From Amphiscolops sp. MND2022 (taxonomy: Eukaryota), in NCBI GenBank assembly GCA_964187785.1, contig OZ076409.1:76572001-76636000 (forward strand): a DNA stretch of 64,000 bases, read 5' to 3'. Below the pieces are notes generated by a model. The model searched no databases and was not told the DNA's origin. It saw only the letters and a program-made list of their open reading frames with translations. Positions within the stretch are counted from its first letter, which is position 1. Each line of letters starts with the position of its first letter. The translations under genes were made by a program, and so were the position numbers. This document shows positions 29,980 to 56,352 of the stretch, in pieces.

Positions 29980-30350
29980 ATGATATCTCATGTACGTTCA
30001 ACAGATTGTTCACCAACTCTGAAGTGGGAAAATTTTCCTTGCGCTTCCAAAAAGTCTTCCACCAAAATATATCTTGTTTTTGTTTCTGGTCAAACTAAAG
30101 TGCTGCTCTGTCAAATCAACTGAAGGCCAATTAAGTAGAAAATTCAACCAAGAACCCATAGAGACCGTTTTTTCCGGAGCCAAATTGAAGTTTCTTCAAG
30201 TATATTCACACAAAGATTTTTTGAAGGACGTAAGACACCCGATAGAGATGCCATTTTTGGAAATGACAAGGTTTGATAGTGTTGGAATTGATGAATAGGA
30301 ACATTGCGATGCCATAATTTAGCATTTCAATCGGTTATTTGATTGATAGA
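29810..30350. repeat. Unclassified dispersed repeat, copy 1 (copy 2 at ~49700-50165)
   Basis: Collinear similarity, e.g. CAAATTCGGTTTTCGA.ACAGTCTTGG and AAAAGTCTTCCACCAAAATA. Confidence 0.8.
29923..29979 (+). repeat. (CTG)19 microsatellite
   Basis: Perfect trinucleotide run. Confidence 0.98.
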
Positions 30351-30462
30351 TACGGAGAAAGCTTTAACCAATTCGTACTGCGTATTGAACTGACGAAATG
30401 GAAATATATACATGATTTTACATGCAAAAATGTTCATGCTGACCCTTGTCGTCATATCATAT

Positions 30463-30733
30463 TGTACTGACCTACATTAATAACCAATAGTATTTAGATG
30501 TTTATAGAATGTTCTAGAATGTACATTCATTTATTATTGAATGACTGTAAGTCTCTACTCCCTCAGAGAGAGAAAACTAATAATCAGTATTTGGTTGACT
30601 TCCCTTTTGTTCTACTTCTACCACCTCGAACTAGTTGTAATAAAGTTAGCTAGCTAGCCTGTCTCTTAGCCGCTTTTTAGTAAGTTGTGAATAACACCAC
30701 CACCACACATAACCAACCATAAAAAGCAGCACA
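30463..30733 (+). repeat. Element D 5' LTR (271 bp)
   Basis: Direct repeat of 47760-48029; contains AATAAA. Confidence 0.95.
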
Positions 30734-30970
30734 ATTGGTGCGACTTGTAAAAGTTCTTGCCTTTTTCTCCTGGATGATTTCTTTTCTCTCAACAATAATA
30801 CAAATACCACTCTCCACCTTTGAAATTCTCTGGAATTGCAGTGAAATCTTTCTAGAATTTCTTGAAAATTTAGTCTGTGACTTTCTGAATTTCATCAATA
30901 ATACATTATCGTTAGAAATACAATTTCTCCACTACAACAATCAATTCAAACATAACAAGTTTTCTTCACT

Positions 30971-31300
30971 ACCGGTTTATCACGTTTTCTAACACGTTGA
31001 CACGGTTCTTCTTTCTGCTCTTCTTGCCATACCGGTTTATCACGATTTCTAACACGTCGAAACGGTTTCATTTCAGACTGATTTATCCATTGTGACACAG
31101 TTCTGTTTCTCTTCTTTTTCTAGACTGATTTATCCAAAAGTGACACAGTTCTGTTCTCTATACTGATTTATCAGAGCTAATCCGGAAGCTTGTTGAAACA
31201 GTTCTTTGATGTTTGTCTGGCTTATCAAGGTTTTCTAACATCTTTGACACAGCAACATTTGTCTGGTTTATCAAGGTTTTCTAACACCTTTGACACAGCA
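30971..31300 (+). repeat. Array of seven degenerate stem-loop units in the element D 5' leader
   Basis: Consensus CYG-RYTTATC-N(6-22)-GA-MA-CRG at 30971, 31031, 31077, 31124, 31162, 31217, 31263. Confidence 0.85.
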
Positions 31301-32310
31301 ACTTTCTTCAATCCTGCTATCTTCAACGTCAGGTGGACTCCTGGTGTAATAGTTGACTGAGTGCATGTCCAGCTCCGCTCACCTATAAGCACATACGTCT
31401 CAAGATCAACTTCGTGTTGGCAGAAAACCTGGATTTTCTACTTTTACGTTTCGGATCCATTTTCTACAAAAAAATTCTACAAAATAGTTTTCAAAAACAG
31501 ACTCTGAATACAAAAAAGGCAACCAAGACTATCTACAAAAAGCAACCACGCCCTATTCCATTTCTTTTCCAATTGTCGACAAACAACACAAATAATTTCA
31601 AGAAACATAAACAACACAAGAAAAATAACAACACAATCTACACTTAACTTTATATCTATTACCTTCAACAGCAATGATATGATTTTAACATAATCCTACA
31701 AAACAATGATTTTAACAAAATACCACATACATTTCCCACAACTCTTTTGCCCTAAAACCTAAATAAAGGCATGTAAATAACACAGACACTGTAAAGGTAG
31801 TTTTCTACTTTCAGGCACCCACAATTCCTATCCCCTCCCGTAAGACTTAGACAATCAGATAGCTTCACCAGCTTACTCTGATTCTAAGGCTGACTAAAAA
31901 CCTTAGTTAAGTGTAAACGTCTTTGAGGAGAATCGAGAGGACACCGAACTACGTTCGAATCTTCAAAATTCTCAGGAAGTAAAAGTAAAAGTAAAAGAGA
32001 CAAAGATCAAACTTTGATCTTGATCAGTATTGATCAGACTTTGGAAAGTGGACCTTGATTGTTCAGAGCTCCACTCCCTTAGTCTTAAAACACACAACTC
32101 ACCTAAAGTTAAAACAACCTTAGCTTTTCTGGACGTGTCAGTAACATTGTGTTAGACACTTTAAAGTGATCCAGACTTAAAATCACACTTAGTTTCTGTT
32201 AGCAATCCTTTGAGGTTGAATACAGATTCTATTGCATCCGCTTCTTTCTTCTCTATCCAAAACTATTAACTTCCCAAATAACTTCTAATTCTTATTAAAT
32301 CACAAATTAT

Positions 32311-32649
32311 ATGAACTCTAACGTATACAACCAAAGAGTTCATTCTTTCAAGTTTTACATTCCACCAATTAGCTCACTTCAAAACCCTACATCAGACGAT
32401 TTTGAAAGATTAATTGAACGATATCAACAATATTTTTTCTTTATCATAAATCAACAAAGACATTACCCAAGAGCTCCAACTTAAAGGGATCTATATCAAA
32501 AATTATTTTCAACGTTTCAACCTTCATATTATAACATGTGGGAATTAGTTACCACAGTAGTGCTCATTACAACATACACGTTTTGTGTCTTATTTCTATT
32601 TAGTATTCTCTTTGAAAAAATACTTACAGTGATAAGAGATAAAATCTAA
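32311..32649 (+). pseudogene. Small pre-gag ORF (112 codons, one internal stop) with a C-terminal hydrophobic helix
   Basis: ATG at 32311, internal TAA at 32482, LVTTVVLITTYTFCVLFLFSILF segment, stop 2 nt before the next ATG. Confidence 0.45.
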
Positions 32650-32651
32650 AA

Positions 32652-35600
32652 ATGAACTCCTCAACAACAACCTTTCTACTTTTTCAAACTCCCGTCATTA
32701 AAAATGCAAAAGTTGTAAAATTAGACCTAAACCCATTCCTACAAAACATTATTTCCCATTATGCACAACCACTCCCATTTGGAAATGAACCTCATACAAT
32801 TGAAACAATACCTCTTATCAGAGAACATTTGGACACATACCTCTTCTATATTATATACAAAGTTCTAACTATCACTACAGAATACCCAGCTTTTCAAATC
32901 TCCTTTCCTCAACAAAGACCTAATTCATCTCATATATACAGAAGAACTATAAACCCAATAAACCTTCACGTTCCTATTAAACAAGTTTTTCATGCTTTTT
33001 TAAACAATGTGAAAGACCACAACCTAGCACATGAAACTCCAAAATTTAGTCCAAATGCACTCGACGAACTTGAACGATATATAAATAATTTCGACGTAGA
33101 AATTATTGAAAGATTAGTTAATCCTGAAGACAATCCTCATCATTGGTTACAAACTGATACATTACGAATACAAAATTTCCTCTACCATTATTTCAAAGAC
33201 CTAACATTAAATGACCAAACAATTCCTCAGATCAAAGTAATATCTCTATTCCTCAGAAAATACTTCAGATTCAATTTTCAACTTATAAGGTCACAACAAG
33301 ATCAACCTGCTATCATAGCATTTCCAAATCATTTTACATCTGACGAATGTTTACCATTTATCATTAGTGAACAAATCCTTATTATTAGTGAACAATTAAT
33401 GAACATCCTTATTTCCATAAACCACAACTAATTACAAAACAAACTTTAGATTACATATGTTTTGATCCTCTATTAATTACAGAAAATGATCTATTTGCAG
33501 ACAATAGACCTTATCACTATGAGCAATGTTCTCAAGTTCAACAAAACTTGAATTTTAACACTAAGAACTATTCTGAAGATGATAATACCAATAATGAAAA
33601 TACACTCCAACAACAAAATCAAAATGAAAACTATAATGATGATAATCAGATCATTGAAAACAATGCAAGTGAGTTTACTACTCAAGAATCTACAATTTCA
33701 ACAAATAATGCATCACAAGTCGGAACATCAACATCAACACACATTCCATCCTTTAGAGTTCCAACTAGAGTTGTAAATCAAAGACAAAATACACATAATC
33801 CTCAATCTCACTTAGATACATCTCCAAACTGTAATATAACTTTCAACCTTCCATACACAGACGAAACAACACACGACGAAACTCATGACACATTACATGA
33901 AGATATTCTGACCACATCTCATGCTCAGAAAACTTCTGTTAATGTTGCATATCCAACAAGAACTATTCCTTATTTTACAAGATACATTACTCGACCTAGA
34001 CATGATCCTCCATCAATTCCTTCTTCTTTCCGCTCGGATAGATCAATTTCTTCAAACAATAATTGTAATGATAATCCACAAACTTCCAATCAATATTACG
34101 ATCCATTCAATTATAACTTTTCTCCTCCATCAAATACAAATACTAAAGCAAATATCAACCAAAATCACTCTCAATTTAATACGAATTCAACAACACAAAA
34201 CCCTTTCATACAATTATCACAAACCAGTACTTCACAGAATAATGTATATTCTCAAAATCAAGGAATTTCGTATCCTTCAACTTCTTATTCTCATACCACA
34301 CAACATTCTCAAAGAAGACTTCAAAACCCTCCACTTACACATATACCAACTGATCCTTTGTATCAAATGCATCCAAGTACAAATCCAAATCCTAATCCAA
34401 ATCCAAATCCATTACCACAAAATACAACTCAACATATACCTCCTCAACTCACACAACAAGCAGCTCCTCCACTCCAATACTTACCAATACCACAAGATAC
34501 TTTTATGAACATGTCCGCTTCAATACCAGAACCTATGAAACCTTTTGATGGTTTAGACCATTCTTATACTCCAGAAGAATATCTACAACAAGTCGAAGCT
34601 AGATTAACCTTCGCCATAGGTGAAGAACCTCAGAATAATCCTATAAAGTACAAATCTTTGCATAATAGACGCATGGCTTACATACAAAGTTCTTTAACTG
34701 GAACAGCTCTCGATTGGTATACTAACCTTCATATATCATATAAACAACAATGGAACTCCTTTGTACAATTATTCAAAAAACAATTTTCATCTCAAAAAAC
34801 AGCTTACTACGCCCAAGTAGAAGCTATGTCACTCATGAAAAAAGATAATGAAACAGTACGCCACTTCGACCTTAGAGTACAACAATTAGTTAAAAAGGGA
34901 TGGTGCAATGAAAATGCAGCTACCGTAAACCTCAAAAATATTGAAATCTTTACAAAAGGATTACCCAAAAAACTGAGGATTTTGCCCATAAACGACAAGT
35001 TAAACATGAATCGACATTATTTGAACCTTCAATACCATTTCACAGACTTGTTAGACATGTCGATTCTGAAGACATTGCTGAAGAAAAAATTAGAACTAAC
35101 GACTTAGCTCTAGAAATAAACAAAGTATCGCTTGAAGATGATACAAACAAAAGAGAATTTGAACATGAAGATCATATAATGGTTACTCAATCTGGAGACC
35201 CAAATAACAAAAGCAAACCAGCGTTTAAAAAATATTGTTCTTATTGTCACAAAAATAATCATGGTATTTCAAACTGTTATCAAAAACAACGTGATGATGA
35301 ATACCAAAAATACACAAACCAAAGATCACGAACTCCTCAACAATCTTTTGTACAATATTTTCGCAGTAAACCTAATAACTCACAAGAAACTCGAAATGAC
35401 ATGACAAATACCTTACTCCTCAGATAACGATCGTAACAAATATAATCAAAATTACCATAACGATAGATACAGAAATATTGATAGACATCGTAGCAATAGT
35501 AGAGAATATTCGCAAAACAACTATAGATCAAATTCTCGACAAAGATATTACAGTCGATCTCGAAGTCCATCTAGATCTCGATTTGATAATTATTATCAAA

Positions 35601-35833
35601 GAAGAACTCCATCTATATCTCCATATAGATCTCCAAACAGAAATAACTCAAATTACAGATATAACTCCCGCTCAAGATACAGATCTCGTTCTCAATCACA
35701 AGAAAACTCCTTTAAACGATATAATTATCCATATAGATCTCCATCAAGACCTAGAGATTTTAGATCACGATCTAGAACACCCTCACGAAACAGACAACAA
35801 AACAGAATAAATCAAGTAGACGTTAAATTATAA
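32652..35833 (+). pseudogene. gag: Element D gag with a long N-terminal extension, capsid, one CCHC and an RS-rich tail
   Basis: MKPFDG..PEEYLQQVE..LTGTALDWY..WNSFVQLFKKQF capsid; CSYCHKNNHGISNC; joining 32652-33431 to gag is inferred. Confidence 0.85.
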
Positions 35834-38800
35834 AAGACAATGATAGTACAAAATTTGAAATCCACACTTGCCAAATAACTGAAATCGCTGATACAATTAC
35901 TCCTTATAGTTGGTTTTATCCACTATATGTTCATGCTTCTGAAACAAATGATACCATATTACCTTCAAAATTAGAAATCTTATTCCTCTTAGATACTGGA
36001 GCATCCATATCTGTTTTGAATTTACCAACATTTCATGTAATTTCCACACAATTAAACATCAATGTTCCGACCAATCTTGAAAACAAAACTTATGTACTAG
36101 GGTAACAATCCCTATTAAAAATTAACAAAATAGAAATTAACGACAAAACACTTCAACTTCCTATACCTTCATTTCTTGGAAATCTTCGACCCTCAGATAA
36201 AATTCGAAAAGATTTTCCTCCATTACCATATTCTACAGAAAACCAACAATTCTTAAAAAAGTTTAACTTTGAATACTCAGATTTAACCGATACAGAATAT
36301 GTAAACCTCTGCAATATTTTGATTGATAATCAAAATTGTTACGCCAAACATAAGAACGACGTAGGAAAATTTTCTACTCCCTTTCGAATTAGAATAAAAG
36401 ATAACTGTAAACTTCAAACACAAAGACCTTCTAAAGTACCAATTCATCATAAAGATAGGCTGAATAAACTTTTACTAGAACTCGAAAAATACAAAATAAT
36501 AAAACAATATAGTTCCACCTCAAATGAAAAACACACAATTGGAACAACATTTTAAAACCCTCTATTTGTTATCCCAAAAGGAGACGCAATAAAAGTTGTC
36601 TTAGACGCAAGACATTTAAACTCAAACACCAACCAAGAACTTGAATCTTGGCCCATTGAACGTTTAGCTCCTCAATTAGCTAGAGCAAAAAAATATAAAT
36701 CAACTATTGATCTAATGTATGCCTATGCTCATACACCATTAGATGAAGAAACAATCAAACTTACAGGATTTTCATCCGGTGACAAACTATACGCCTTTAT
36801 CCGTGGATTTTACGGATTAAAGGGACTTCCAAACTATTTCACAAAACAAATGTCAACTTTCGTTAGACCACTTATAGACAAACGTTCTGCGTTAGTGTAT
36901 ATTGATGATTTTTTACTACTCGCAAATGAAAAACAAGAAATGTTTGAACTTATAAAAGAATTACATAAAATAGCATCTCGAGAAAATCTCAAACTTGCAC
37001 CCTAAAAATCATTCTACATGTTACTCAAAGTAAAATTCCTTGGACACGAATTTGGTAATAACACAATCAAACCAATTCCATCCAAAATTGACGCCATTAA
37101 AAAAATTCCATCACCAAAAGAAAAAAAAGATGTTATGCAATTTCTTGGCAGTGTTAACTTCTATTCAAAATTCATTGAAAAACTCCATATAAACCTTAAA
37201 CCATTGTATACATTACTACATGATGATGGTAAATTCCAATGGACACCTGAAAAAATATTTCAAAATGTAAAAAATGCAATGACAGCAGACACTGAATTAA
37301 CCATACCCAATACAACGCATCCATTTTTCAAAACAGTAGACGCTTCGTTAGTTGGTTTAGGCGCAGTCTTATTCCAAATGAACGAAGAATTCTTAACACA
37401 CAAGAACAAAAACTTTCAACTTTAGACAGAGAACTTTTCGCAATAGTTTAGGCATTACAAATATATGAATTTTTGATCATTGGATCTCCTCATCCCATAT
37501 ACATATTCACAGATCACAAACCTCTACTACATTGTTTTGCAAAGAAAAGAAATCCTAGTCCTTGATTTTATAGAGCACAAATGCAATTAACCAAATTCTC
37601 CAAACTGAAAATCATTCAAACCCCTGGAAAAAACTCAACCGTAGAAGATATGCTTTCACGAACTTTTACAAAAGAACAATTACAAGTACATCAATTACGA
37701 CACAAACAATTACCACCTCAAATAGATTTCTCTATCATGAAAGATAATCAACTCAAACCAGTACACTATTTGGTAAAACATGAAGAAATCAAATATAATC
37801 AAAAGAATGATTGTCATCTTATCCTTGCTGACTACGGAGACGACCAATTCTCTATCCGTATAAATAACAAAGGAGAAGATATCCACATCAAACCTTTAGA
37901 TTCTTTCTCTTTTCAATCTATTGTTCCATTTGAATCAAAATATAAAAAACCCACAAAAAACCAAACAAAATCTCTCTTACAACAATCGAAAATTCTTAAC
38001 GATACTGATATTCTCAGTGATGACGATGACCTAACTCAATCAAATAATATCCAACATCAAAACTCAGACATATCAAAAGAACACACACTGGCTATACAAT
38101 ATCCTACCAAATCCTATTACTGTAATCAACAAGTTCCATTTTTTGATCCATCTTTCTTCAAATACAAAAGATATTTTAGTTATTTCTTCCTACCAGAAGA
38201 TACACAAATAACAATTGAAACAAAAAAAACTCAACAAAAACAAGACACTGTTTTACAAAAAGTTTACCAATGGGTACTTAATAATGAAAGACCCTTACAA
38301 ATAGACCCAACAATTGCAGCAAATTCTTTCTTATTAGTATATTACAAAATTTTCAACCAATTGTATGTTAACCATGATACAAAAATTATTCACCTAGATT
38401 ATCCTAATCTTCACGATCCAAACCCGAATCAAAGAGACAAAATATGTTTACCATCTAAACTCTTCCTTGCAGCTTTTAACCAACTTCACGCTCATGGACA
38501 CTCAGGAATAAAAATATCCATCAAAGCTTTTAACCAATTTTACTTCATACCATATTTGAATAAATGGATGTCAATATTCATCCATGATTGTATTGAATGT
38601 CAACAAAATAAACATATTAACCAAAAAATACAAACTGCATCCATACAAACATTTTCAGAAAATGCTTCATATTTCAACTACCGAAAATCAATGGATACAA
38701 AAGGACCCATAAACCCACCAACAAATCAAAACTCATACATTCATGTTATAGTAGACGCTTTTAGTCACTCTGTAGTAACAGTACCTATAAAACAAAATAA

Positions 38801-39970
38801 TGCTCAGAACGCTGTTAACTCCTTACTACATCATTGGATAACAAAATTTGGACCTCCTGTATACCTAGTTACCGACCGTGGATCAGAATACATTAATTCC
38901 GAATTCGCAAACTTTTGTACCACAATGGGAAATAGACATTCACCAAGAACTCCTTATGCACCATAGACTAATGGTTTAGTTGAAAATCAAAACAGAAATT
39001 TTGGAACTCATCTCAGACTTTTCTTACATAACACTCCAGAAAAATGGTCAACTCAAGTTCATATGTATGCTTATGCACATAATTCACAACCACTTTCTGA
39101 AATGAACTTATCTCCATATGAAATAGTATTTCATACTATACCCAGAATTCCAATCAATTTTGAACTCAATCTCCAAAGAGATACCTATGGAAATTGTACT
39201 TCCCAATATTGTCAAGAATTACCACTTCATACACACTATGACAAACAAATCTAAACCCCTTCTTCCATAAAATTTTATCCAAACCGATCCCACAATGGAT
39301 TTTAGCCACTGAAACTGCTATGATACAAATATACCACACAGTATATGAAAACACAAAAAGAAAAATTATTTCTTACGCTTATTTTAACAAAACATACCAC
39401 AATCCGAGACCCTTGGATATTGGTACATTTGTACTAAAAAGAAAATTTCTCCATGTTCATTTTTCCGACAAATTAAAACCTCTCAGAATTGGACCATTCA
39501 AAATTATTAACAAAATTTCCGATATAACATATGAAATTGTTAATCTCACATACACAGAAATCATTTAGTTCCTTACTATCCAAAAGAACCAATTTTATTT
39601 TCTTTCCTACAACAGTATAATCCTCATTTACTCAATGATAATTATTCGAATATAAACGATCCAAAAATTCTTTTGACTCCGATGAAAACCAATTCAGTGA
39701 CGAAGATCAATTTTCTTCCACAAAATTTAATAAAGAAACGGATATACCATCCACAATCAACTTCCAACCGGAATCATTTAGCCAATATTTTTCATTTCCG
39801 TACCCAAAAAAAGAACAAGATTCTAAAAATACCAACTCAGATAACCAAGCAGAAATTCATGATTATGATAATTTTATTAACCCCCGAAGACACCCCTATA
39901 ATAGATACAATTTCCGCCCACAACCAAGAAAAGACTATCGACTTTTCCTTGGTGAAAAGGATATAATTTC
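35834..39970 (+). pseudogene. pol: Element D pol (PR, partly deleted; RT; RNase H; IN)
   Basis: LLDTGASIS, GFYGLKGLPNYF, YIDD, VDAS/TDHKPL, HAHGHSG..CIEC, MDTKGP, VTDRGSEY, GPF motif. Confidence 0.93.
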
Positions 39971-40133
39971 ACTTTCTCAAAATCCTGCTGAAATACAGAA
40001 AGAAAGAAAATTTGAAAGAAAGAAAGAACGTTTGAAACTTAATGTGAAATTGAATGCAAAAAATTTTTTCACAAGTGATAATAAAAGAAAGAAACTCTAA
40101 TTAACATAAAATTAACTAACTTACATTTTGAAG

Positions 40134-41420
40134 CAAACTACCCTAACACAAAAGATTTCAAAATTGATAGACACACTCATTCACCATCATCAACTACAAA
40201 TTATTCATCTTCTAGTTCAACACAATCACTCCAAACATTACCTGAAAAAACAGCATATTTAAACTCAGATACAGAAATACTGGATTCCTCATCCTCAAAC
40301 CCCAGTCCATCCGCTCCATTTACTCCTGATAGAGTACCAGCAACACCCACCAATAAACCTATATCCCAGACTCAAAAACCAGTAATAACAACTCAACCAC
40401 AACCTATTTCACAAAATTTAGTATTTTCAGAAACAAGTTCACCAGTTACTGACTCTAATGATGAAACACTTACAACATCAACTACACAAGATACTTCAAG
40501 TATTTTAAATAGACCTCCTTTCCCACCATTTACTACCACTCGTTCCGTTTATATCCCTGATCCCAACTCAGTTCTGCAATACATAAATTCTTGTCCACAT
40601 AAAATACACACAGCAACTAAAACAAAAAGAAAAACTCCTTTACCTACATTACCACAAGACCTTAACTTACCATCAACAAGTCATACTCCACCCAAACTAC
40701 CACAAGACCTTAACTTACCATCAACAAGTCATACTCCACCCAAACTACCACAAAACCCCAACTTACCATCAACAAGTTGTACTCCAATAACATTCCTACC
40801 ACTACCAGAAACTTCATTAAAGGCATCAGTGAAGAAATTACAACAACACCCAATTCCATCACCATCTGTAAGTTCATTCACATTTTCTCAAACATATCCC
40901 AAACTTGAATTAGAACGTGTACATTCAACCACTACCTCTTCTTTAACAGATTTATATCACAAAGATAAAGATTCTGACTCAACTGTCAGTACTAGAGTAC
41001 CAAGACATAATTACAACCTTAGATCTCAACAACGAAGAAATTCTCAGGAATTACAATCTTCAACTAGTTCAAGTACAAACTCAAGACTAGTTAGACAGCA
41101 CGTTGAACCCAGATTAATTAGACACTTCTTCTCTTTCCTCATCTCAACCCACTATACCATCTTTTTTATCATTACCATTTCAAATCACATCAGGATTTGA
41201 AACAGCTTCTCTTCTTTCTGAAGACCCAATAACTATATCAGATAGCGCAGCTAATTTTTCACAAGTTTATTCACCTAGTTCAATAACATCAAACTCTTCC
41301 ATACAACTACCTGAATAATTTTTAGAAGATTTCTCAAGACCTCCAACACCAAACCCTCACGAATATCCCATCCGTGTTAATTCAAAAATTGTTCGACTTA
41401 ATTGTAGAACAAAATTTTAA
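40134..41420 (+). pseudogene. Ser/Thr/Pro-rich ORF between pol and env
   Basis: Frame open from ~40200 to 41200 without an upstream ATG, then frameshifted; contains a 48-bp tandem repeat. Confidence 0.5.
40651..40787 (+). repeat. 48-bp tandem repeat, ~2.8 copies (PQDLNLPSTSHTPPKL)
   Basis: ACCACAAGACCTTAACTTACCATCAACAAG.. at 40651, 40699 and 40747. Confidence 0.95.
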
Positions 41421-41434
41421 CCAATAATTTAACC

Positions 41435-44010
41435 ATGAATCATATAACTTTTAGCCTATACCTAGTATACATAATACATGTTGTTAAATACATATATATA
41501 TTACACATAGTTCACTCTTTAGTTCACCCTTCAACTGTTCCTAAAGTTGATACAACCAATTCCGAAAATCAAATTTCAGACCAAAACCCCAACAATTTAA
41601 ACTTAATGGTATCCCATTATGATTGTGCAAAACAAAACAACTTAAGCCAATTCAGTTTATTAAATGTTGAACCATGTAAACAAGCACCCTCAGATATACA
41701 ACACACAAAAACCTAAGCAACAGTTTATGTTAGAGCAAAAGCCAAAAGAATAAAAGCCTTTAAATGTGAAGCATATATAAAAACTGAAAAGGTCTGGTGT
41801 TCACAAAAATTCTCATCCAGTAGACGACATGATCGTTTACAATGGGGACAAAACACATTAGAACTTCCAAAAATATTAGACCCCATTGAATGCAAAAACA
41901 TGATAAGATATTTAAACGCGACTGATAGCGAAGAACTAAACAATTACAATATACAAAGCTCTTTCTCATTGTTCGACGATAGTAACTATCAAAACACAAT
42001 TGAACGAATTCAAACACCATTTAGAGTAAAAAAATTAAACACATGGCTTATCGGAACCTTCGTATTCGATGAACATTATCCCGACTGGATAGTTAATGTT
42101 ACACAAAATACATACTCCAGATGTCGAGCCGACCGAGAACATTTAATTACCCGACAAAGTTGGAAACTTAGAATTGTTAACACCGCAATAGATTATGATG
42201 ATAAAAACAATCAATTAATACATGACGGACACATATTACCATGCTATCATTCAGACGGATTTTGTAAACCAACGACAAAAACCCCATATACATTAACATG
42301 GTATGATGAAAAAATTTGCCTCATATTTCAACTTCAAGAATTCATTGGTAGAATGACACGAATTAAAGATAGATATTGGATAGAAATCGATACCTTCATT
42401 GAAACTTCAAACATCACACAAAAACTTCAAACCGAAGGAATACAAGGAACAAGATATCCCACTGTGAAAACACCACAATCAAAAGTAAGTAATCCAAGCC
42501 TTTCTCGACTTGAAATATACCCAATTGCACAAACCTACTGTGGAAAACCTGAACCATTATTCTCAACACAATATGATGACATCTTTGGTACATACTTAGA
42601 TGGTTTTGATATGAACACAGGACAACCAAACCCACACTCAATAATTGATCAAACAATTAGTGGAAACATAAAAAATGATGACTCAAATAAAAGGTATATA
42701 TTCCCTGCATTGAATATATCAAACAATTTCGCCCCTTAGACTATGATGCCCACATTATTACAAAAATTGATTTCACAATAAATCATGTATTTAAATCCAT
42801 GACAGTACAAGAACTAAACACCCTTCATACAATTTGTGAACGGGAAAGAACTCAATTGTTAACAACCTTAGCTATGTCAGTCAAGAATCCTCAATTAGCC
42901 GGTTTTCTTTTAACTGGAAATCGTAGTAACTTTCTCTACGTTGAAGGATCTAGAGCATGGCTGTATGATTGCCCTCATTTTATATCAACACTATACAAGG
43001 CAGATAAATGCTTTGATAGAATTCCCATTTACTACAGAGAAATTATAATGTATGTTGATCCTATAACAAGACAAACTTTTAACTATGCAACACCAATTGA
43101 ATGTGGAAATAACCCACAAAATATAATTGAATTAGACCCAGATTCTAACGACGGAGATTTTTATGTGTTAACACCAGAACCACTCAATTGAGAAGCACCA
43201 CAAATGTTTAAACCTACCCAGTTTAAAACAACAATTATTCCTAATACATTTACCCCCCAAGATGCAGGTATATACTCAAATGCAAAATTAGATCAATTTT
43301 GGAACAGAGTATTATTCGCTAAACACTCAGACACAACTCTTCAATTACTTGGAAAATCATTAAGCTATGATTTCATCACAGTGCATAATGATAAACATTC
43401 CTACTCAGGACATAATCCTTATAATCATTTAAGGATTGGAGTACATGACCACTTGTTAAACTTCTTACCACTTTTCAACCCTGACTGGTTCTGTCAAGCA
43501 ATCATTAATTTCTTTGGATATCCATGTTATGTTTTAACACAATGTGGAATTTACTTTTCAACATTTCTTTTCATTAGAGAAATTTTAACATTTTTACTCA
43601 AATTCTACACAACAATTAGCATAAAATATAATCTCCAAAGCAACATTTCCATTTTGAGTTCAATTGCCCATGGATTTTTTAATATAGTTACATCGGAAAT
43701 GATAACCGATTTGAACAATACAGGAAAACGAAAACGGATATATACTAAACACAAAATCACAACAAGTGAAAATGATAATATCATATTGCCAGAAAAAGAA
43801 TTACCCAAAAAACGAAGATTTTCTGATAATGACTCCCCTTATTTACCTCCTAAATATTCCAGTAAGAATTCAACATTTCAATCACCGCCAAAGACACACC
43901 CAACTAATGTCAACGATATTAACTCTCAGGACTATGACCCAATATTATCAAATGTAATAGCTGTACCGGAAAGTCCTGCTAAAGTCTTTATAAAATTTAA
44001 TCCCTCCTAG
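41435..44010 (+). pseudogene. env: env: class III (chuvirus G / herpes gB-like) fusion glycoprotein with stops and a frameshift
   Basis: Hydrophobic signal; HYDC..FSLLNVEPC; LPCYHSDGFC..W..C; ICERERTQL..NPQLAG; WLYDC..CFDRIPI..YVDPITR..IEC; C-terminal hydrophobic segments. Confidence 0.85.
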
Positions 44011-44450
44011 CTAAAAAGCAAAAACCAAATAAACAAATTAACCTCAGAAAAGTTAAAAAAATTATCAACAAAATTTTCCTCAGTTTAACTTTCATTCAAA
44101 CCCAAATTCTCACTTGGACCAGTCTCTCCTTTCAACTCAACTGAAAATTCATTTGCCCATCACAACTCAACACTCAACCAGAAGACTTCAACTGGATCTT
44201 CAGTCCATCTAAAAGACCGAAATTACAGAAGTTTCTATTCCTGGAATAGATGCCACTGTGATTGTTGATGTTTTCAACCCACAATTGACTCAGTTATTCT
44301 CACACTGTAAGTACAATTTAAACTTCAATTTTAGCAAACAATTTAATGGACAGAAAAGACATAACAAAATTTTTCCTCCTTATTAGAAACAGTATAATCA
44401 AATGTTATAATCATTATTTTAGCTCTACAAAAACACGAAAGTCTAATTAA

Positions 44451-45742
44451 TTGGAATCCTTGCCCGAAATTGATGTAGTTAATTCTAACTCCTCTGAATT
44501 GTTTGCATCCCCTTTGAATATAACTATTCGACAAAATGTTAACGAAGATAATAATTCATCTTCAGATTCCCAAGATCCCATGGAAACTATTCCTATTGAA
44601 CAAGTAGATCATGTTAACGCAAGATCTCAAAATAGAAAGTCTCCAGATATAACTGCAGACAAACCTTTTATGGAATCTGGCGCTTGCCCTCCTTTCATAA
44701 AAGCAGTTAAACAAGATGAAGATAGAGATTGTGAATTAGTTCCTATTCTCTCATCAAAACAATTTACCTTTCAATCTCAGTTAACATCGTTATACATGAT
44801 TCCAACAAAATACAACTTCATCATCAGAGAATTCAAAAATGAGTATCATACTTCAATCGCTTCAAAATTGATTACCCCATATGATTGGTGGTTAAACAAT
44901 AAAGTAAAAATTTTCTCACTCCAATACAACTTCCTCAGACCATCTCCATATGATCTTCGAACCGAAGAAAATGATGCAAATTTTTTGCCATACCAAATCA
45001 AAAAGGCTCATCACATGACTTATCAGAAGTTTCTTCACTACAAAGAGCCCGATAAATATATATTCTTCAACTCCAAATACACGTCGCCATTTACTTTCAA
45101 CTCAGAATACTTGATAGATCATATCAAAACAAAAGGAAAACTTAGAAATTATGATCCGCTTTAACAAAGTTTTTTTTTCCTTCCAAATGATAACCCAAAA
45201 AGACCAATCATTGTACCACAAGAATACCTCATTCTGAACGACGATTCGCTACTACAAGAAGATATACCTCAAAATATATCTGATTCTCTTCCTCCACTTC
45301 AACATATAGCCTCTCAACCTCTGGGAGACTGTGAAAAATCTTACTTTTACGCAATGACCAAAAAGGGATATTCAAATAATGAAATAATTTTCATTATTTC
45401 TCATCTACTTTCACTTCTTACAAATGGAAATACTAAAGAACACAAAAAGACAAAACAAGAATCGCCAAAAAAAACAAAAATGACATTCCTCAACCACAAA
45501 GTTTTCGCCCAACGGACGAATTACAGAAATATACAGAAATTTTGAACATCATAAAACCTTATCATCATCCGAACCGAGATATTCTTATAACAATCGCCGA
45601 AATCGTAAATACTCTTGAACAAGCTCGAAGCATAATACAAAATATCGTATTCGATACGACAAGAATTAGCCAATCAGCTTTGTGTATTCGCACTTCTTTG
45701 GACGAATTCAATTATACTATTGAAAAAATGCACCGATCTTAA
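44451..45742 (+). pseudogene. Post-env accessory ORF(s), unknown function
   Basis: 237-aa open frame plus frameshifted continuations at 45165-45545 and 45542-45742. Confidence 0.5.
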
Positions 45743-47759
45743 CAGGTAATTATGGGATAATAATTTTAAATTGTTAACACTTATCATTTAATCTCTTAAC
45801 AACCTGTCAAAACTAATTGAGTCTACACGCATATGCCTGCTATGCATGATTATATTACCTGTTTCATATTAAAATACTCTTTTGAAATAAAATAATATAA
45901 AATTTTCAACCGCGACATAAAATTTTTAAACAAAATTCCTCAATTGCTCCTCCTTTTAATGGACTGATTTTAACAAATAAGTGCTTATATGAAAGATATT
46001 TAAATACCCTTCAAAAGACTTCCATAATACATCAATTTAATTCTTAAAATTAAAAAGTTATAACATCACAAATTACATAAAAAAAAAATGTCAACTAAGA
46101 AACTCTATTTTAAAAGGAACTTTATTGTAAACAAACTAATCTATTTTAGGTGAATACCGTCACAACTGCTTCATCAGCATTTCTTCCTTCTCTCAAGACG
46201 TCCATCCAAAAAGATTTCCAACGAAATCTTCTACAATTTTCAACAAATTTCTTCATATTCTTCAATATGACGACACTCCATTCTGGTGACATTGATTGCC
46301 CAATAGCTCCTCTTCTTTCCTTCAGCTCGATTGCGATCCCTGATTCTGAAAAAGCATTTAACAACATTAAATACACAGCTCAAGACAGATAAAAAGGCAG
46401 ATCCTCATTTTACAAGAATGATATTGCTCAATATGTTTCAAATATTCCAAATTACACGAATAAACTTTGACAAAAATCTTCAAATTCATAAACATCCTGA
46501 TACATATTCGACCAAACGAGACGCCACTACCCAAACAGAGCATACTACCATCAAGCCCAAACATTTATCACGAAATCTATCTAACAGAATGCGTTCTGAA
46601 ATGGAAAAACAAAACCTAAATTCCTATTGGCTTCAGACAATAACGACGATACTGATGAAGAATTTCAAAAAAACCCTACAGAAACACTTCTAGATGATAA
46701 CTCCCCATACAAAACGTACACTTACGTCTCTTTTTGATATCAACAGATGACATCAACAGCACTCCTCAGATGACAACTTATCTTCCAATCCAAACATCCA
46801 CAACGCTTGCTCGTCACAACTCAGCGCCCGTTCTTCACAACTTCACAGCCGCCCAACAGCTGACCCATCTTCATCCATCTTCCAATCTTCAATCTTCAGC
46901 CATCCAGTTCTCAGCCGAAGAAGATGATAAATAATCAATAATAAAAGAAACTCAAAGAAAAAACATTGTGCATGATAATATTTAAAAAGATTCAAACTCA
47001 TACCGAAAACATTTGCAAAGTATGTATTTCAAATTTCATCCCCACCCATGTTTATTTGCCCTCAAAATCATTTAATTCACACCTTTATCGATGTTTATTT
47101 GCTTTATTTTTAAAGAATACTTAATAATTATCAATTTTTGGTGCTATCCTACCCAAAACTCACATATGTTATTCACAAATCTTTTCAACATTTCAACAAA
47201 ACAAGTTCAAAAAATAAATCAAGCACATTGTTCAAAGCAGATTCGAATAATGACAGACCCAAATTCACAACTTTTCCAACATTTGTTACATAACAAACCC
47301 GCCAAAGTTGACCACAACCTGATATCTTTTCAGACAGTTTTCACACTCGATGAAAAAATCTTATCAACAAAATTTTTTCAATGACTCTTTGACCTTTAAC
47401 TTGTATGATGTTTGCTCACATTTGTTCAATGCGAAGTTCATTCAAAGACTTCAACAGAGGCATAAAATTGAGCAACTACCAGTTCAAAAAACAAGCCGAC
47501 GAAAGCTTAGTGAAAAAGAACACTTTGACGCTTTTTGAACTGTAGTCGCACCTACGAGGTGTCAATCAAAATTTTGACAATTCGAGGTACACCAATGAGT
47601 CGAACTTACACCACTCTTAAAGAGACTTATGCCAATCATCCATCAAATGAAAATTGTTAACTAGCTGAAACGCTAAGAATATTTAAACAAAAAATTTTTT
47701 CTTCATTTTAATTAATGATGCTACTTTAAAATTTTATTTTATTTAAAAACCGGGATGGA

Positions 47760-48029
47760 TGTACTGACCTACATTAATAACCAATAGTATTTAGATGTTT
47801 ATAGAATGTTCTAGAATGTACATTGTTTATTATTGAATGACTGTAAGTCTCTTCTCCCTCAGAGAGAGAAAACTAATAATCAGTATTTGGTTGACTTCCC
47901 TTTTGTTCTACTTCTACCACCTCGAACTAGTTGTAATAAAGTTAGCTAGCTAGCCTGTCTCTTAGCCGCTTTTTAGTAAGTTGTGAATAACACCACCACC
48001 ACACATAACCAACCAGAAAAAGCAGTACA
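47760..48029 (+). repeat. Element D 3' LTR (270 bp)
   Basis: Follows the PPT; TSD ATAT follows. Confidence 0.95.
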
Positions 48030-48426
48030 ATATGACTCATATGATCCACATTTTGTTGCTAAAAACCTGATTGTCTGAAATGTAACAGCAATTGTGTAAA
48101 GTGTTGTAACAGAGAAGATTGCCTTTTTATTCTGTTTTTAGTCGGCACTTTTGGAACAAAAAAGGCCTAACTCTTACAGATTGCTAATTTGTTTCTCCAG
48201 ACCTCTAACTGACAGGTCCACTTTTTGCTACCATACTTTTTGAAGCTTTTGTCGTTTTTATACAACTTAGAAAGTTTGGTTTTGCTTGTTTTTTGCGGCA
48301 TTTGAGATTTTCAAAGCTTCTTGATGTTGCCAAAGTTTTCATTTATGCTTCAAAAGATAGAGGAAAGACTATACAATGTTTCTCTTGTTTGCAAAACAAC
48401 CGAGTTGGCCTCCTTCGATGACCAAT

Positions 48427-49699: not shown

Positions 49700-50165
49700 T
49701 ACGGATGCAATACTCAAATTCGGTTTTCGAAACAGTCTTGGTCTTTAAAGCACTCAGGGCTTCACCACTAAAACCTTAATAACCACTACTGTCACTGCAG
49801 ATGTCTTATGTACGTTCAACTGGCCGTTCACCAACTCAGAAGTGGGAAAGTTTTCCTTGAGGTTCCGAAAAGTCTTCCACCAAAATAAATGTTGCGTTTT
49901 TTGGTCAAACTAAATTGCTGCCCTGTGAAATCAACTGAGGGTCAATTAACAAGTTAGTTCGAAAAAGAACCAGATGAGTCCGCTTTTTTCCAAAATCAAA
50001 TTTACACTTCTTCAGGTAGATTTACTGAAAACTTTGTTGAATTTTTTAAGTCCCCCGATAGAGAAACCATTTTCGAAAATGACAATTTTGATAGTGTTGG
50101 AATTGATGAACAGGAAGATTGTGATGCCACGATTGAGCACATCGATCGATTATTCGGTTGAAAGA
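49700..50165. repeat. Unclassified dispersed repeat, copy 2
   Basis: Collinear with 29810-30350 but lacks the CTG run. Confidence 0.8.
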
Positions 50166-50849
50166 TGATCGTCCGCATTCTTGTTAATGGTAGTACCTGT
50201 ATGGCTTCAGCAAGTATACCATCTCTCAACTTGAAAACTCCCAGAAAAGAATAGTTCAGTGGATTATCCCTAGAAAAGAGTCGTACAAGGAAAAATTGTC
50301 GACCTTATCTCTACCAATGTATATCCAAATCAGCAACCTGCTACTATCAAAAATACTATGTGGACGCTATTACTCCCAAAAGCTTCGAATACCTCTTATT
50401 TTCCGCTTCTTTCTGTTTCAGCTGGATAGACCAAAGAATAAAACTCTGGAAAACGACTTCTACCAAACCGACTGACTCTCAATTTATAAGACTGGATATT
50501 ACTGACCGAACAAACTTCTAGAAAAAAGTAACTTCTCTAGCAGAATTTAAAGAACTTGAACAAATTTTACAAGTGTACATGAGCAGTGACATGCGATTGG
50601 ACGATGAATAACTGCGGAAGCGAAACGGACATCAAGAACATGATAACTGATGGACGTAGTCCCTTGTGTTTATAAACACTAAATTCGTTTTACTACTAGT
50701 AGTAACACTACCTATAGCGGAATTAATGCAAACTGGATATAGCGTCTTTGGAGTGTTTTTCAATGTTATTTCGGCGTTGTGAGACTTTTCGAATGTTTTT
50801 TATTGTCTGCGAAGGGCCCTTCTATTTTTTTTCGATCTTTTGCTACAAA

Positions 50850-51327: not shown

Positions 51328-51725
51328 CCCTGTTTGCCGAATCCCATTTTACCGAATCCCACTTTGCCGAAAGCATGGGACATTTTGCCGAATTTTTTTT
51401 GGCAAAGTGGGCATCGAAATTCGGCAAAGTGGGCAAGACAGTTGTCTACATCTGCAAAAACAGACTATTATGCTATAAAGTGATTCAAAGTATAAAACGT
51501 GTCTCGGATATGTCCCCATTTCCTCGGTGAGGGCGAGCGTGCTTACATCGGAGATGCCCCACATTATATTTTCGCTCTCCAAAAGTCTGTTTTTGCAGAT
51601 GTAGAAAACTGCCTTGCCCACGTTGCCGTGTTTCGATGCCCATTTTGCCGAATTGCGATGCCCACTTTGCCAAAAAAAATTCGGCAAAATGGGAGAGGTA
51701 GGGACACTTTGCCGAATTCGGCAAT
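51328..51725. mobile_element. Foldback/MITE-like element with inverted arms built of TTTGCCGAA subrepeats
   Basis: Arms 51381-51466 and 51584-51691 are imperfect reverse complements. Confidence 0.75.
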
Positions 51726-51729
51726 GTAA

Positions 51730-51820
51730 ATGGTCACTTGGCTTAATGCCATTTGGCTTTAATACAATTGGTCACTTGGCTTGATTTTTTTAAGCTAAGT
51801 GTCTCGGGTATTGGTCACTT
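51730..51820. repeat. GGTCACTTGGCTTAA subrepeat cluster (probable non-autonomous DNA transposon), resuming at 56353-56800
   Basis: Motif at 51732, 51770, 51813 (split by the Copia) and 56723; inverted variants at ~56746 and ~56786. Confidence 0.5.
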
Positions 51821-54800
51821 TGTTAGAGATCGATGAAGGTCAAAGGACCATTAAAGGTCAACCATCTCAGACTATACCAGACTGAACTAATTTAGTATAA
51901 TATTGTTGTTTGTAAACATGTACCTGTTATTTTATCTTCACTTGACTGAATCACGTTATCAACTCACAACACAAAATAAAGTATTGACAATAACCACTCT
52001 TCACCAATCTTCCGACAACCCAGCTACGACCAGAAGGAGCCCAGGCCCTAATATGTTATGGGCCCAGCAATTTGGTGAGTTTGTTTTTTTCAAAAACTTT
52101 TTTCTGCCTACTTTCACTATGCTCGCCTGATCTTATTTTTCGTTCTCCATGGCAACTACTGCGGGACCACTTCAACAGCACCGAAACACCGAGATTGATG
52201 AAACTATTGGAGAAGTTCACAACCCTGCGATTGGACCCCACGGAGAGCATGGTTGACTACCTGACTCAAGAAGAGTATGTGAGTAAGCAGTTGGAGCTCG
52301 CTGGTGAGAAAGTTTCTGAAAACATGTTAACTTCGATAGTTCTTAAAGGTTTGCCTTCCGAATATGACTATTTCAAAACTGTGCACGATTTTTCGAAAGA
52401 TACGGCGTCTTTTGCGGAAGTAAAGAAAGCATTAAAAAAATTTCGAAAGTTCTCGTAACCTACAAACTGCGACAGCTAACAATGAAAAGGTTGCTTTGTT
52501 ATCCAAAGGAACTGTTGCGAAAAGTTCCTCACGTAAACCTGAAAAGTTCACTAGGAAGTGTAGGCGTTGCGGTAAAAGTGGACATAAACAAGCCACTTGT
52601 AGAGCATCCGAGTGCACTTTTTGCAGGCGTTTTGGCCATGAAGAGAATAAATGTTTTAAGAAAAACCTTCTTTTGAACCCTAAGTCAAGTGCTGAGACAG
52701 GAGAGTCAAACCTAGCTGAGGACATAGTTTTCTTTTACAATGGTAGTGAGACTGCACTCACTAGCCAAAAATGCGAGGTGAAGGAGCACACTTTGGTCAT
52801 CGACTCTGGTGCTTCCTCGCATATGTTTTTTGACCGTTCTCTGTTCTTCGACTCGAGCGAAGAAACACAACGCAAAGCAAAAATGCGAATGGGACTTTTT
52901 CGCAAGTTGAGGGTGTTGGAAAAGTTTCTCTTTTACTTTTGGACAAAAAAGGGATCGAACGCTGTGTGACATTTTCCGATTGTCTTTTTCTTCCTGATCA
53001 TTCTCATAACTTGATCAGCGTTAGCAAGTTGAGACAAAACGGGGCTCAAGTGAACTTCGGACAATCTCTGAGCATTTTTGTCAATGAAAGAGCAATTATT
53101 CCTTTTGAAGAGCACGCTAATCTTTACATTTTGAAAGGGAAGACACTTGATTTTTGCTCTTTTTCCGGCAAAAACGAAAAGGCGGTGTTGTGGCATCATC
53201 GCCTTGGTCACAACAATTTCAAAAATGTGAAACGTTTGGCTCATCATGTTTCGGGGATGAGCTTGAAACACAGTGCTTTTGATAAACTCTGTTGTTGTGA
53301 AGTTTGCAAAGTTTCTAAGTCACGACGGCAACCAGTATCGCGAAAAACGGAGAAACGAAAATCTTCGAAACTTGATCTCGTCTCCACTGACATTTTGGTA
53401 CCGATGCCAACTACTTCGGTTGGTGGCAATCGATACGCTATTTCTTTTACGGACAGCTACAGCAGGTACTCAGCGGTATATTTCCTCAAATCGAAAGAGG
53501 AGTGCCTAGATAAATTCAACGTTTTTTGTGCGCAAGTGGAACGCCCAGGGCAATCCGTTCTGATAATGGTAAAGAGTACATTTCCAAGTCTTTTCGAAGT
53601 TTTTGTATATCAAACCGAATCAAACGTGAGCATACTGCCCCTTATTCGCCTCATCAAAAGGGTGTTAGTGAACGCTGCTGGCGAACAACAGTCGAAATGG
53701 CTCGCTGCATGCTAAAAACCGCAAAACTCGGCAATGAATTTTGGGTTCGGGCCTTACACACTGCTTTTTACATTTCAAACCGTTGCCTCACAGTTAGTTT
53801 ACCAAAAGGTAAAACGCCCTTCGAAATGTTCTTTGGTAAAAAACCAGATATTTCCAACTTGAAAATTTTTGTATGTACTGCTTTCAAACACATTGAAACG
53901 CATCAAGACAAACTTTCCGATAAAGCCACCAAAGAAGTTTTTGTTGGTCATTCTGAGGATTCCGAAGCATACATTTTGTACAATCCTTATTCTAAAAGGA
54001 CTTCGGTTTCTTGCAACGTCTCCTTTGATTAGACTTCTTTTGACTTTTTTGCTGCGCACCCAAGTGAAAACATCCGAGCATTTGTAACCGAAAAGCCGTC
54101 ACCGAAACAAGTTTTGACTGAAACACAGAAACACTTTTGCGAAAAGCCTTCAGTTCCTATTTTACCGACTGAAACATTGAATGATTTCGAAACTGAAACA
54201 ACTCCTTCCCCGTTGATGTTGTTTCATCTGAAAACATTGATGCCAATGAAAGTAGTGCTTTTTTGCGTTCTCGAAGTGGGAGAGTTATCGAACCTCCTGC
54301 GTATCTCGACGACTACGTTCTTTTAACGGATGACATGGATGAGAATCTAACTTATCGTGAAGCAATGATGTCATCGCTTAAAAGCGAATGGATCGAAGCA
54401 ACTCAAAAGGAGTACAATGCGCTCATTGAGAACAAGACCTGGTGCTTTCTCCGCTTCCCCCGGGCAGAAAAGCAATTGGAAGCCGGTGGGTTTTCAAAAT
54501 TAGGCGACACGACGACGGAACTATCGAAAAATTCAAGGCTCGTTTCGTAGCGCAAGGGTTTTCGCAAGTTCTTGGGAACGATTACGAAGAAACTTTTGCG
54601 CCTACTGCCAAACTTTGTACCTTGAGGATTTGTTTTGCGCTCGCTGCTTCTTGATCGACTTTTGTTTTTCAGTTAGACGTCCGTTCAGCCTTCCTCAATG
54701 CGAACTTGAGTGATGAAATTTATATAGATCAACCAGAAGGCTTCGCGCAAGCGGGGGCTAATGGTGAAACACTTTATTGCAAGCTTCAAGAACGCCTTTA

Positions 54801-56352
54801 TGGTTTGAAGCAAGCAGGGAGGGAGTGGAACAAAACTTTAACCCAGTGGTTTTTGAAGAACGAATTTGTACAGTCTGCCGAGGATCATTGCCTTTTTCGT
54901 TGCGATGGGACTAATGGTTCCCAACTTTTTGTACAAGTTTGGGTCGACGACATTTTGTACTTTTCAAACAACGACAAAATGCTGCATGATTTCAAGGCGA
55001 AACTCAGCGATGCATTCAGCATCGATGATCGTGGGAAAATGACTTGGTTTTTGGGATGCAATGTTGAACAGTCACGCGGTCGCATTTTTCTTAGTCAGCG
55101 GTCATATATAAAGGACATTTTGCGCAGAAGTCATATGTCTGATTGTAAACCAGTCAGTACTCCAGCTTTTCCCCATACGAAACAGTCTAAATCGGACTGC
55201 CCTATCGAAGGTAGTGAAAAGTCACTTGATATTTGCGAACAGAAACAATATCGTAGCTTAGTTGGAAACTTAATGTATTTGTCCGTTGTTAGTCGCCCCG
55301 ATATTTGCTTTGCTGTCTATAACTGCACAATTCGTGTCAAATCTTGGTAAAGCCCATTGGTGTGCATTGAAACACCTTCTCCGTTTTCTCAAGGGCACCG
55401 AGTCTCTATCTCTTGTGTATAACCGCTCTGAAAATCTCGAACTTTTTGGTTTTTCGGATTCCGATTGGACCACCGACAATGACGATCGCAAGCCAACTTC
55501 GGGTTTTAGCTTCAAACTAAGTCATTTTGGTAGTGATGTCTCTTGGGCGTCCAAAAAGCAAGGGTGTGTGGGACTTAGGTCTTGTGAAGCCGAGTATGTT
55601 TCGTTGGCTTTGGCTGCACAGGAAGCAGTCTATTTGCAAGCCTCGGTCACATTCTTCTGCTTGATGACGGTGGACACGCCTGTTCTGTTGTGTGGTGACA
55701 ATCAAGGGGCACTCGCACTCTCAAAGTCACAAAAGTGCTAAACACATAGAAACCCGACACCACTTCATCCGTCAACTGGTTGACGACAAACGCATTCAAG
55801 TGTCTAATGTCTCCACAAAGAACAACTTGGCTGATATCTTCACCAAGCACCTACCAAAGCCTGCCTTCAATGAGCTCTCATCGCAACTCTTCGTCATTCA
55901 GCCACCTCGATCAACAACTTAACCCTTGCCTCCCTCACAACTCAATTATTTTACATTACTCATTATTGTGTTTATGTTGTCACTGGGACTATCACGACTT
56001 TCAGCTTCTCTTCAATTGATGGATAGAGCCTTCTCAACCGCTGCCATGACACGACAGATGGTCAAGAAGCACAGTGGTTCGCCATCATCAACCAACAACA
56101 GCCCTCGGAGTCTCTCATCGAGCGGGGATTGATGAAGGTCAAAGGACCATTAAAGGTCAACCATCTCAGGCTATACCAGACTTAACTAATTTAGTATATT
56201 ATTGTTGTTTGTAAACATGTACCTGTTATTTTATCTTCACTTGATTGAATCACTTCATCAACTCACAACACAAAATGAAGTATTGACAATAACCACTCTT
56301 CACCAATCTTGTGACAACCCAGCTACGACCAGAAGGAGCCCAGGCCCTAATA
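51821..56352 (+). mobile_element. Element E: Ty1/Copia LTR retrotransposon (4.5 kb), decayed
   Basis: LTRs 51821-52053 and ~56127-56352; TSD CACTT at 51816-51820 and 56353-56357; PBS TGTTATGGGCCCAG (half-tRNAiMet type); PPT GAGCGGGG. Confidence 0.95.
52072..55922 (+). pseudogene. gag-pol: Copia gag-pol (gag 5'-truncated; PR-IN-RT-RNase H order)
   Basis: Two CCHC, VIDSGASSHM, LWHHRLGH, RSDNGKEY, KARFVAQGFSQ, LYGLKQAGREW, VWVDD, FSDSDW, KHIETRHHFIR. Confidence 0.95.

Follow-up and report, generated by a model that had tools for sequence, protein, structure and literature searches.

The closest described relatives of the locus reported here are the HSV/gB-type errantiviruses in the survey of Chary & Hayashi (eLife 2026, PMC13524379), which covers 1,512 env-carrying Ty3/gypsy elements. 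Its text describes gB-type env as homologous to the Chuviridae glycoprotein G and as widespread as the F-type, insects included, and the pairing of a Gypsy backbone with a gB-type env is already published, in many animals. The first filter of the survey admitted a POL-ENV gap of up to 1,000 nt within a region of up to 10 kb, and later manual steps inspected 3-5 kb past pol. An earlier note on this DNA had treated gB-like env as something of a rarity in LTR elements, which the reported abundance, equal to that of the F-type, contradicts; its contrast with insects, said to use F-like env, is incomplete, as gB-type env is reported from insects also (PMC13524379).

Chuvirus-derived glycoproteins have also been described in the mosquito BEL/Pao elements called Anakin (Dezordi et al. 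2020, PMC7642597), and Jingchuvirales EVEs are known from arthropods (PMC10084718). Extra ORFs in LTR elements are exemplified by CERV of Cer1 (PMC10309623), the ORF3s of bdelloids (PMC5408684), and planarian Burro and plant Ogre (PMC6431247). For acoels, a genome with an LTR content of 51% has been reported (10.1101/2022.08.27.505549); the literature searched held no report of env-carrying gypsy retroviruses in acoels, nor of LTRs in the Convolutriloba assembly.

The present locus is probably a broken copy of an endogenous retrovirus-like Ty3/Gypsy element that comprises gag-pol, ORF-X, env and ORF4 as its four coding regions. Its env is predicted to be a class III fusogen, and its intact relatives would likely make Env-coated particles that carry the element RNA from cell to cell.

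Organization of the element

The window, that is, the whole stretch of 64,000 bases of DNA that was analysed, contains at positions 30463-48029 a Ty3/Gypsy element of 17,567 bp, with gag-pol and env located between its LTRs. The 17.6-kb Gypsy element of the earlier note is thereby borne out. Its features are:

30459-30462, unstranded: 5' target-site duplication (TSD) ATAT, from the sequence
30463-30733, plus strand: 5' LTR, 271 bp, TGT...ACA, a direct repeat
30734-32651, plus strand: leader, 1.9 kb
30736-30747, plus strand: PBS-like TGG motif, 2 nt 3' of the LTR
32652-40100, plus strand: gag-pol, broken, from Pfam and intact relatives
40085-41400 (end approximate), plus strand: ORF-X, Ser/Thr/Pro-rich, in the pol-env interval, broken
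41435-44010, plus strand: env pseudogene, class III fusogen family PF24664
44451-45742, plus strand: ORF4, an orphan accessory gene of ~430 codons 3' of env
45743-47759, plus strand: 3' region, 2 kb, with a purine-rich tract at its end
47760-48029, plus strand: 3' LTR, 270 bp, a direct repeat
48030-48033, unstranded: 3' target-site duplication ATAT, from the sequence

The two LTRs have TG...CA ends and differ by four substitutions and one indel (98% alike), and the flanking ATAT is the 4-bp TSD that had been read earlier together with the few LTR differences. Direct LTRs with such ends, a TSD within the 4-6-bp range, gag followed by PR-RT-RNase H-IN, and an RT closest to Ty3/gypsy are the features of the Metaviridae. 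The PBS table of PMC13524379 contains no exact counterpart of the PBS-like motif, the closest by eye being Gly (8/12), and the purine-rich tract before the 3' LTR is imperfect. The copy at 30463-48029 is dead and makes none of its products.

The remaining intervals yielded little. The leader (30734-32651) matches none of 450 fetched proteins; a weak match of its segment 31916-32002 to the C-terminal part of the ORF-X relative P0013 (E 0.004) may be due to low-complexity chance. The coding signal of the 3' region (45743-47759) is weak and confined to near 46150-46740, with no match among the fetched proteins. For the frames 32314-32616, 44219-44389 and 46150-46740 the codon scores are weak (6-9) and none of the 450 fetched proteins is related; they are therefore not claimed as genes.

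The empty insertion site would be TC-ATAT-GA, a palindrome (window 30455-30462 and 48030-48037), and TCATATGA recurs slightly downstream, which hints at a target preference. A repeat with copies at 29835-30351 and 49706-50166, 78-83% similar, lies on both sides of the element, which may thus have inserted in or beside an older repeat family.

Neighbouring elements in the window

Four LTR-bounded elements cover 42,188 of the 64,000 bases of the window, and no tRNA gene was found in it. Such a density of LTR elements would be compatible with a possible acoel host, given the 51% LTR content of the acoel genome cited above. The element at 954-14563 (minus strand) has LTRs of ~2.3 kb that are 95-98% alike, a Gypsy-like RT and integrase, and a DUF1759 match in its gag region; the env profile does not match it. 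A compact Gypsy element at 22699-28573 has a 185-bp LTR core (98% alike) and, following the integrase core, a 304-codon frame (27319-28233) with no convincing family match. A decayed Copia element (RVT_2, gag_pre-integrase) occupies 51381-56660, its left end overlapped by a small inverted-repeat element at 51381-51691 with arms of 55-72 nt. Long GC-rich frames (52-56%) of 674, 211, 141 and 340 codons at 58405-62724 on the minus strand, three of which were scanned against Pfam with no match, probably belong to another element.

The gag-pol region

Pfam identifies Retrotrans_gag, RT, RNase H, integrase and an SH3-like end in the Gypsy order. The copy has a long gag with a CCHC knuckle and an SR-rich stretch, a protease, and an RT with YIDD; it carries more than 10 breaks, and ~250 codons are deleted between protease and RT. 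Intact relatives exhibit a single gag-pol ORF of 2,637-2,691 aa (three among the 30 members listed, from two clusters), and for one of these, P0434, the best PDB match is Ty3 Gag-Pol (E 4e-48). The frame at 32643-33431, considered as an accessory ORF, was rejected since comparison with the relatives identifies it as the gag N-terminus. The intact relatives P0434, P0438 and P0068 have ~250 extra residues between protease and RT that are absent from the copy. This linker presumably resembles a degenerate dUTPase, a resemblance that found no support in Pfam.

The DNA of the relatives was searched for in viral contigs with P0004, in metagenome contigs with A4 and P0434, and in genome contigs with P0230, with no match. 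As the relatives are known from proteins alone, it is from these that we infer the presence of intact env, pol, ORF-X and ORF4 within one element elsewhere. Contigs of identical length were shared by too few env, pol and ORF4 records to demonstrate that the genes are linked.

The envelope gene and its relatives

The env region begins with the ATG at 41435 and terminates with the stop at 44010. Its ~858 codons agree with the glycoprotein ORF of ~860 codons described in the earlier note, which had taken it to be open; it is interrupted by in-frame stops at 41714-41716 and 43189-43191 and by a frameshift between 42691 and 42739. When the two halves were translated separately, with X at the stops, both matched Pfam PF24664 (Monjiviricetes_fusion), the N half with E 5e-6, which falls short of the curated 27-bit cut-off, and the C half with E 6e-17. 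A profile of env relatives run across the window gave only four pieces above the inclusion threshold, all of them in the env of the copy.

The ordered Cys motifs noted earlier are all present in the same order (YDC..SL..V..C, C-x4-GFC, CERER, CFDRIPI..VDPITR..IEC), and the 16 Cys common to the relatives P0003, P0004 and P0006 are all retained in the copy. An N-terminal hydrophobic stretch comprises residues 8-26 (KD 1.85). Of the several membrane segments previously proposed, one TM-like segment, near 43540-43600, stands as the sole one past the hydropathy threshold, and the proposed basic tail is modestly so, with 16 K/R versus 10 D/E in the last 99 residues. No furin site (R-x-K/R-R) was found in the env of the copy.

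A search with the C-terminal half as query among proteins of 770-2,195 aa gave five matches in 2,085 candidates. The env clusters represented by P0003, P0004 and P0006 (901-918 aa) contain 1,758, 603 and 424 sequences, with three, nine and seven full-length members, respectively, among the 15 listed per cluster. The median identities within these clusters are high (96.7, 98.9 and 96.3%), which suggests that the sister families of the dead copy have likely expanded recently. Compared with the env of the copy, the three proteins are 44-53% identical over the N half and 60-69% over the C half, and this env identity (44-69%) runs in step with that of pol (53-67%). Closer sequences are the env of P0217 (79% identical to the copy) and the integrase of P0065 (91%), which together indicate that the copy has a subfamily of its own. 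No full-length env more than 69% identical to the copy occurs among the five matches from 2,085 candidates, a negative result of little weight as the longest member of a cluster is not always its representative. The earlier note had suggested that intact copies may exist; intact env ORFs do occur in sister families, and no full-length env was found at identities above 69%. A search of the whole library with P0004 gave 2,184 proteins at E values up to 0.001, the distant full-length ones being 27-35% identical.

Predicted class III fold

As the env of the copy is broken, the fold was examined on a relative only: the AlphaFold model is that of the intact protein P0004, computed from a 50-row alignment. 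The model has a mean pLDDT of 65, with 80-95 in the core, and a pTM of 0.46; it comprises a 45-residue helix (447-491) and beta-rich domains. A Foldseek search of the PDB gave herpesvirus gB in all 33 rows listed (best E 6e-12), and a search of BFVD placed the G proteins of chu-like, xinmo- and qin-like viruses at the top (E 1e-29, 12-14% identity). With VIA-align, the top four rows are gB, domain IV superposing with a Z of 8.2 and an rmsd of 3.6 over 156 aligned of 175, followed by the PHD-FD of rabies G (Z 6.7, rmsd 7.6, 138 aligned). The global TM-scores of the model are low (0.2-0.36). In the ESM Atlas, the first matches are PF24664 clusters (0.94-0.95) and the next are rhabdovirus G and gB, and a search of PDB sequences with the env profile gave no match. 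The long helix, the beta-rich domains and the matches to gB and rabies G make up the class III domain set on the P0004 model. On the strength of its matches to chu-like G and gB, together with PF24664, the class III (chuvirus G/gB-like) assignment of the earlier note stands; the fold match on which that note had made it depend was obtained on the model of P0004. The env of the lineage is thus predicted to adopt a class III, gB-like membrane-fusion fold.

The env lies within Ty3/gypsy LTRs and has the N-terminal hydrophobic segment, the Cys, the C-terminal TM (by hydropathy) and, by the model of P0004, the gB-like ectodomain of gB-type errantiviruses. The survey in PMC13524379 applies an uninterrupted-ORF rule, which the copy, being broken, fails. 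With intact proteins in the sister families, it is the lineage rather than the copy that qualifies as an HSV/gB-type errantivirus. The element does not belong to the Chuviridae, as no L or N family was found among the ORFs scanned and env sits in a gag-pol LTR element.

The top structural matches to chu-like virus G, and the frequency of such EVEs in arthropods (PMC7642597, PMC10084718), might suggest the recent endogenization of a chuvirus glycoprotein gene, carried in the LTR element as passive cargo or as a piRNA template. This explanation is very improbable and largely refuted. The identity to the viral proteins in the structural alignments is just 12-14%; a quick 29-row tree pairs the copy with P0217 within a long-branch clade with P0003-P0006 (SH-aLRT 100); and long ORFs and all the Cys are retained across families that are 44-69% identical to the copy.

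Accessory genes

ORF-X contains a 371-codon open frame lacking a Met, compared with a longest frame of 221 in 200 simulations, and scores +36.9 in a codon model for which gag, pol and env served as the training set. Over local stretches only, it is 39-48% identical to P0013 and to three proteins that a sister family encodes intact at 283 aa and that are ~98% alike. Pfam gave no match. P0133 spans the ORF-X C-terminus into the env N-terminus, which indicates that ORF-X precedes env in a relative as well. The ORF-X of the copy carries PSAP (40307), YPKL (40895) and a 48-bp tandem repeat, and its 283-aa relatives carry YPPL. The reading of 40085-41200 as a mere extension of Pol was rejected, since the Pol of the relatives ends earlier and the homolog is a separate protein.

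ORF4 has lost its start in the copy and contains one stop and one frameshift. It is 89-92% identical to intact relatives of 425-435 aa; of the 2,043 candidates searched, 350 proved to be related clusters, with identities of 69-92% in the best 120 of these, and 12 of the 15 members listed for the P0230 cluster (705 members) have a length of 425-435 aa. In 74 aligned relatives, singleton substitutions are less conservative than those found in at least four rows (BLOSUM -0.63 vs 0.17, p 2.5e-8), and shared substitutions are depleted in the core, residues 61-270 (p 2e-6); the rows come from called ORFs only and are mutually related, so that these p-values are optimistic. Such a pattern is expected under selection on the protein during replication and points to purifying selection. 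When ORF4 was held out from the training on gag, pol and env, its frame scored +36.6 versus -82 and -20 for the other frames.

No Pfam family matches ORF4 above cut-off (best E 0.011), and none was found in PHROGs, PDB sequences or the Atlas; its AlphaFold model (pLDDT 36) is too poor to inform on the fold. The protein is devoid of a membrane segment and has a basic patch and a helical C-terminus. The leading, still tentative, assignment would be an intracellular regulator of the element RNA, acting in export or transcription like CERV of Cer1. With relatives for both ORF-X and ORF4, the description of the lineage as complex holds.

The relatives of ORF4 raise the possibility of a mosaic origin, in which recombination brought in ORF4 and the 3' region from a different family of greater abundance, so that the lineage as such would not be characterized by the four-gene layout. 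ORF4 has many intact relatives at 89-92% identity, including some at 91%, whereas the nearest full-length env and pol proteins are 52-69% identical, with no full-length env above 69%; the latter comparison is limited by a pol search that was blind to polyproteins longer than 2,330 aa. Against such recombination, neither an internal LTR nor a second TSD was found inside 30463-48029, ORF4 shares its strand and codon signature with gag-pol-env, as the scores of its three frames show, and the P0065 integrase and P0217 env attest to a subfamily proper to the copy. A mosaic is considered improbable.

Late-domain motifs in the envelope tails

Tsg101, Nedd4-like ligases and ALIX are the binding partners of three motif classes, which are known mostly from Gag and further structural proteins (PMC7995964). 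In the tail of the env of the copy, PPKY occurs at 43846, and PPxY is retained throughout the close clade, whose four families (the copy, P0003, P0004 and P0006) otherwise have divergent tails. The tail set consists of 28 sequences, namely 27 long homologs from alignment A2 and the copy, with fragments and near-duplicates excluded. PPxY, P[TS]AP or YPxL occurs in 15 of the 28 tails, compared with a shuffle mean of 1.9 and none of 5,000 shuffles reaching 15, the motif classes having been picked after they were spotted in the same sequences and then tested. When the four close kin are dropped, 12 of 24 tails retain a motif; the ectodomains, though longer, contain one in 3 of 27. A strict motif is absent from 13 of the 28 tails.

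Permuted-motif controls separate the three classes. P[TS]AP occurs in 6 tails versus 0-3 for its permutations, and PPxY in 7 versus 1-2 (4 versus 1-2 without the close kin); YPxL shows no excess, with 5 versus 5 for LPxY. The controls thus back P[TS]AP, PPxY in part, and YPxL not. The distant env homologs P0095, P0107 and P0122 have short tails in which YPxL and P[TS]AP both lie close to the terminus, resembling the double late domains of retroviral Gag.

PPxY and YPxL also act as trafficking signals. The tail motifs could therefore be signals for sorting or turnover (YxxL endocytosis, Nedd4-driven degradation) rather than for budding, in an element that is non-infectious and whose functional class III Env serves intracellular or cell-cell fusion. 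The lack of a YPxL excess and of a furin site in the env of the copy would fit such a role, and transmission by env is described as unproven outside Drosophila (PMC13524379). Two observations make it a rather unlikely explanation: the Tsg101-type P[TS]AP is present in 6 of 24 tails, none of which contains any of 9 out of its 11 permutations, and no strict motif precedes pol in the intact Gag of P0438 or in the gag part of P0065. The preferred reading remains that of particles coated with Env.

Proposed life cycle

In the preferred reading, the Gag-Pol of the intact relatives would form capsids in somatic cells, and Env trimers would be delivered to a membrane. The PPxY, P[TS]AP and YPxL motifs in the Env tail and in ORF-X may serve budding or Env sorting by attracting Nedd4-type ligases, Tsg101 or ALIX; judged from these motifs, budding is likely aided by Env. 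By analogy to Drosophila gypsy, the next step might be the fusion of Env-bearing particles with adjacent cells, probably those of the germline. ORF4 would act, probably within the cell, as a regulator. The lineage may formerly have been infectious, as the earlier note proposed.

A bolder proposal is that these elements represent a complex invertebrate retrovirus lineage, with one giant Gag-Pol, two orphan accessory genes and a class III env, that is abundant in an unsurveyed animal group, possibly the acoel worms, and whose ESCRT budding signals are located not in Gag but in the Env tail and in an accessory protein. Taken as a whole this is unlikely; if true, it would constitute an exit route driven by the envelope, different from that of orthoretroviruses and common to a wide family of gB-like retroelement envelopes.

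Comparison with known systems

Beyond the survey of Chary & Hayashi (PMC13524379) are ORF4, with the apparent purifying selection on it, ORF-X, and the late-domain motifs in the env tails. Its main text makes no mention of accessory genes, late domains, ESCRT, the cytoplasmic tail or budding, no acoel terms were found in its seven supplements, and no report of late-domain motifs in retroelement env tails was found in the literature searched. The first filter of the survey could miss a four-gene layout, and, if the host phylum is missing from it, the range of gB-type elements widens. The tail motifs bear on a question that PMC13524379 leaves open, namely how gB-type elements exit and enter cells, and offer a cheap and direct way to probe particle budding. 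Two conserved accessory genes would mean that retrovirus-like complexity arose in invertebrate Gypsy elements too.

The env differs from the G proteins of chu-like, xinmo- and qin-like viruses (PF24664) and from herpesvirus gB in being encoded by a retroelement, in its long Pro-rich cytoplasmic tail and in its distant sequence, while the family match and the predicted class III fold are common to all. Anakin likewise has a chuvirus-type glycoprotein in an LTR element copied by retrotransposition; it is a BEL/Pao element of insect hosts (PMC7642597), in contrast to the Ty3/Gypsy backbone and the 12-14% identity to viral G seen here. Cer1, bdelloid elements, Burro and Ogre are alike in having extra ORFs between pol and env or 3' of env (PMC6431247, PMC5408684, PMC10309623), from which ORF4 and ORF-X differ in the lack of a Pfam family above cut-off. 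Burro is also a large Gypsy element with an env related to mononegavirus glycoproteins, unlike the present one in that its own env lies in frame between gag and pol (PMC6431247).

The closest likeness is to the HSV/gB-type errantiviruses as described in PMC13524379, which share the LTRs, the Ty3/gypsy pol, the gag-pol-env order, the gB-like class III env with its conserved Cys and dispensable furin site, and multicopy families. In contrast, the element described here is 17.6 kb long despite its deletion and broken in this copy, its relatives have a single gag-pol ORF of ~2,650 aa, accessory ORFs flank env, and the env tails carry late-domain motifs.
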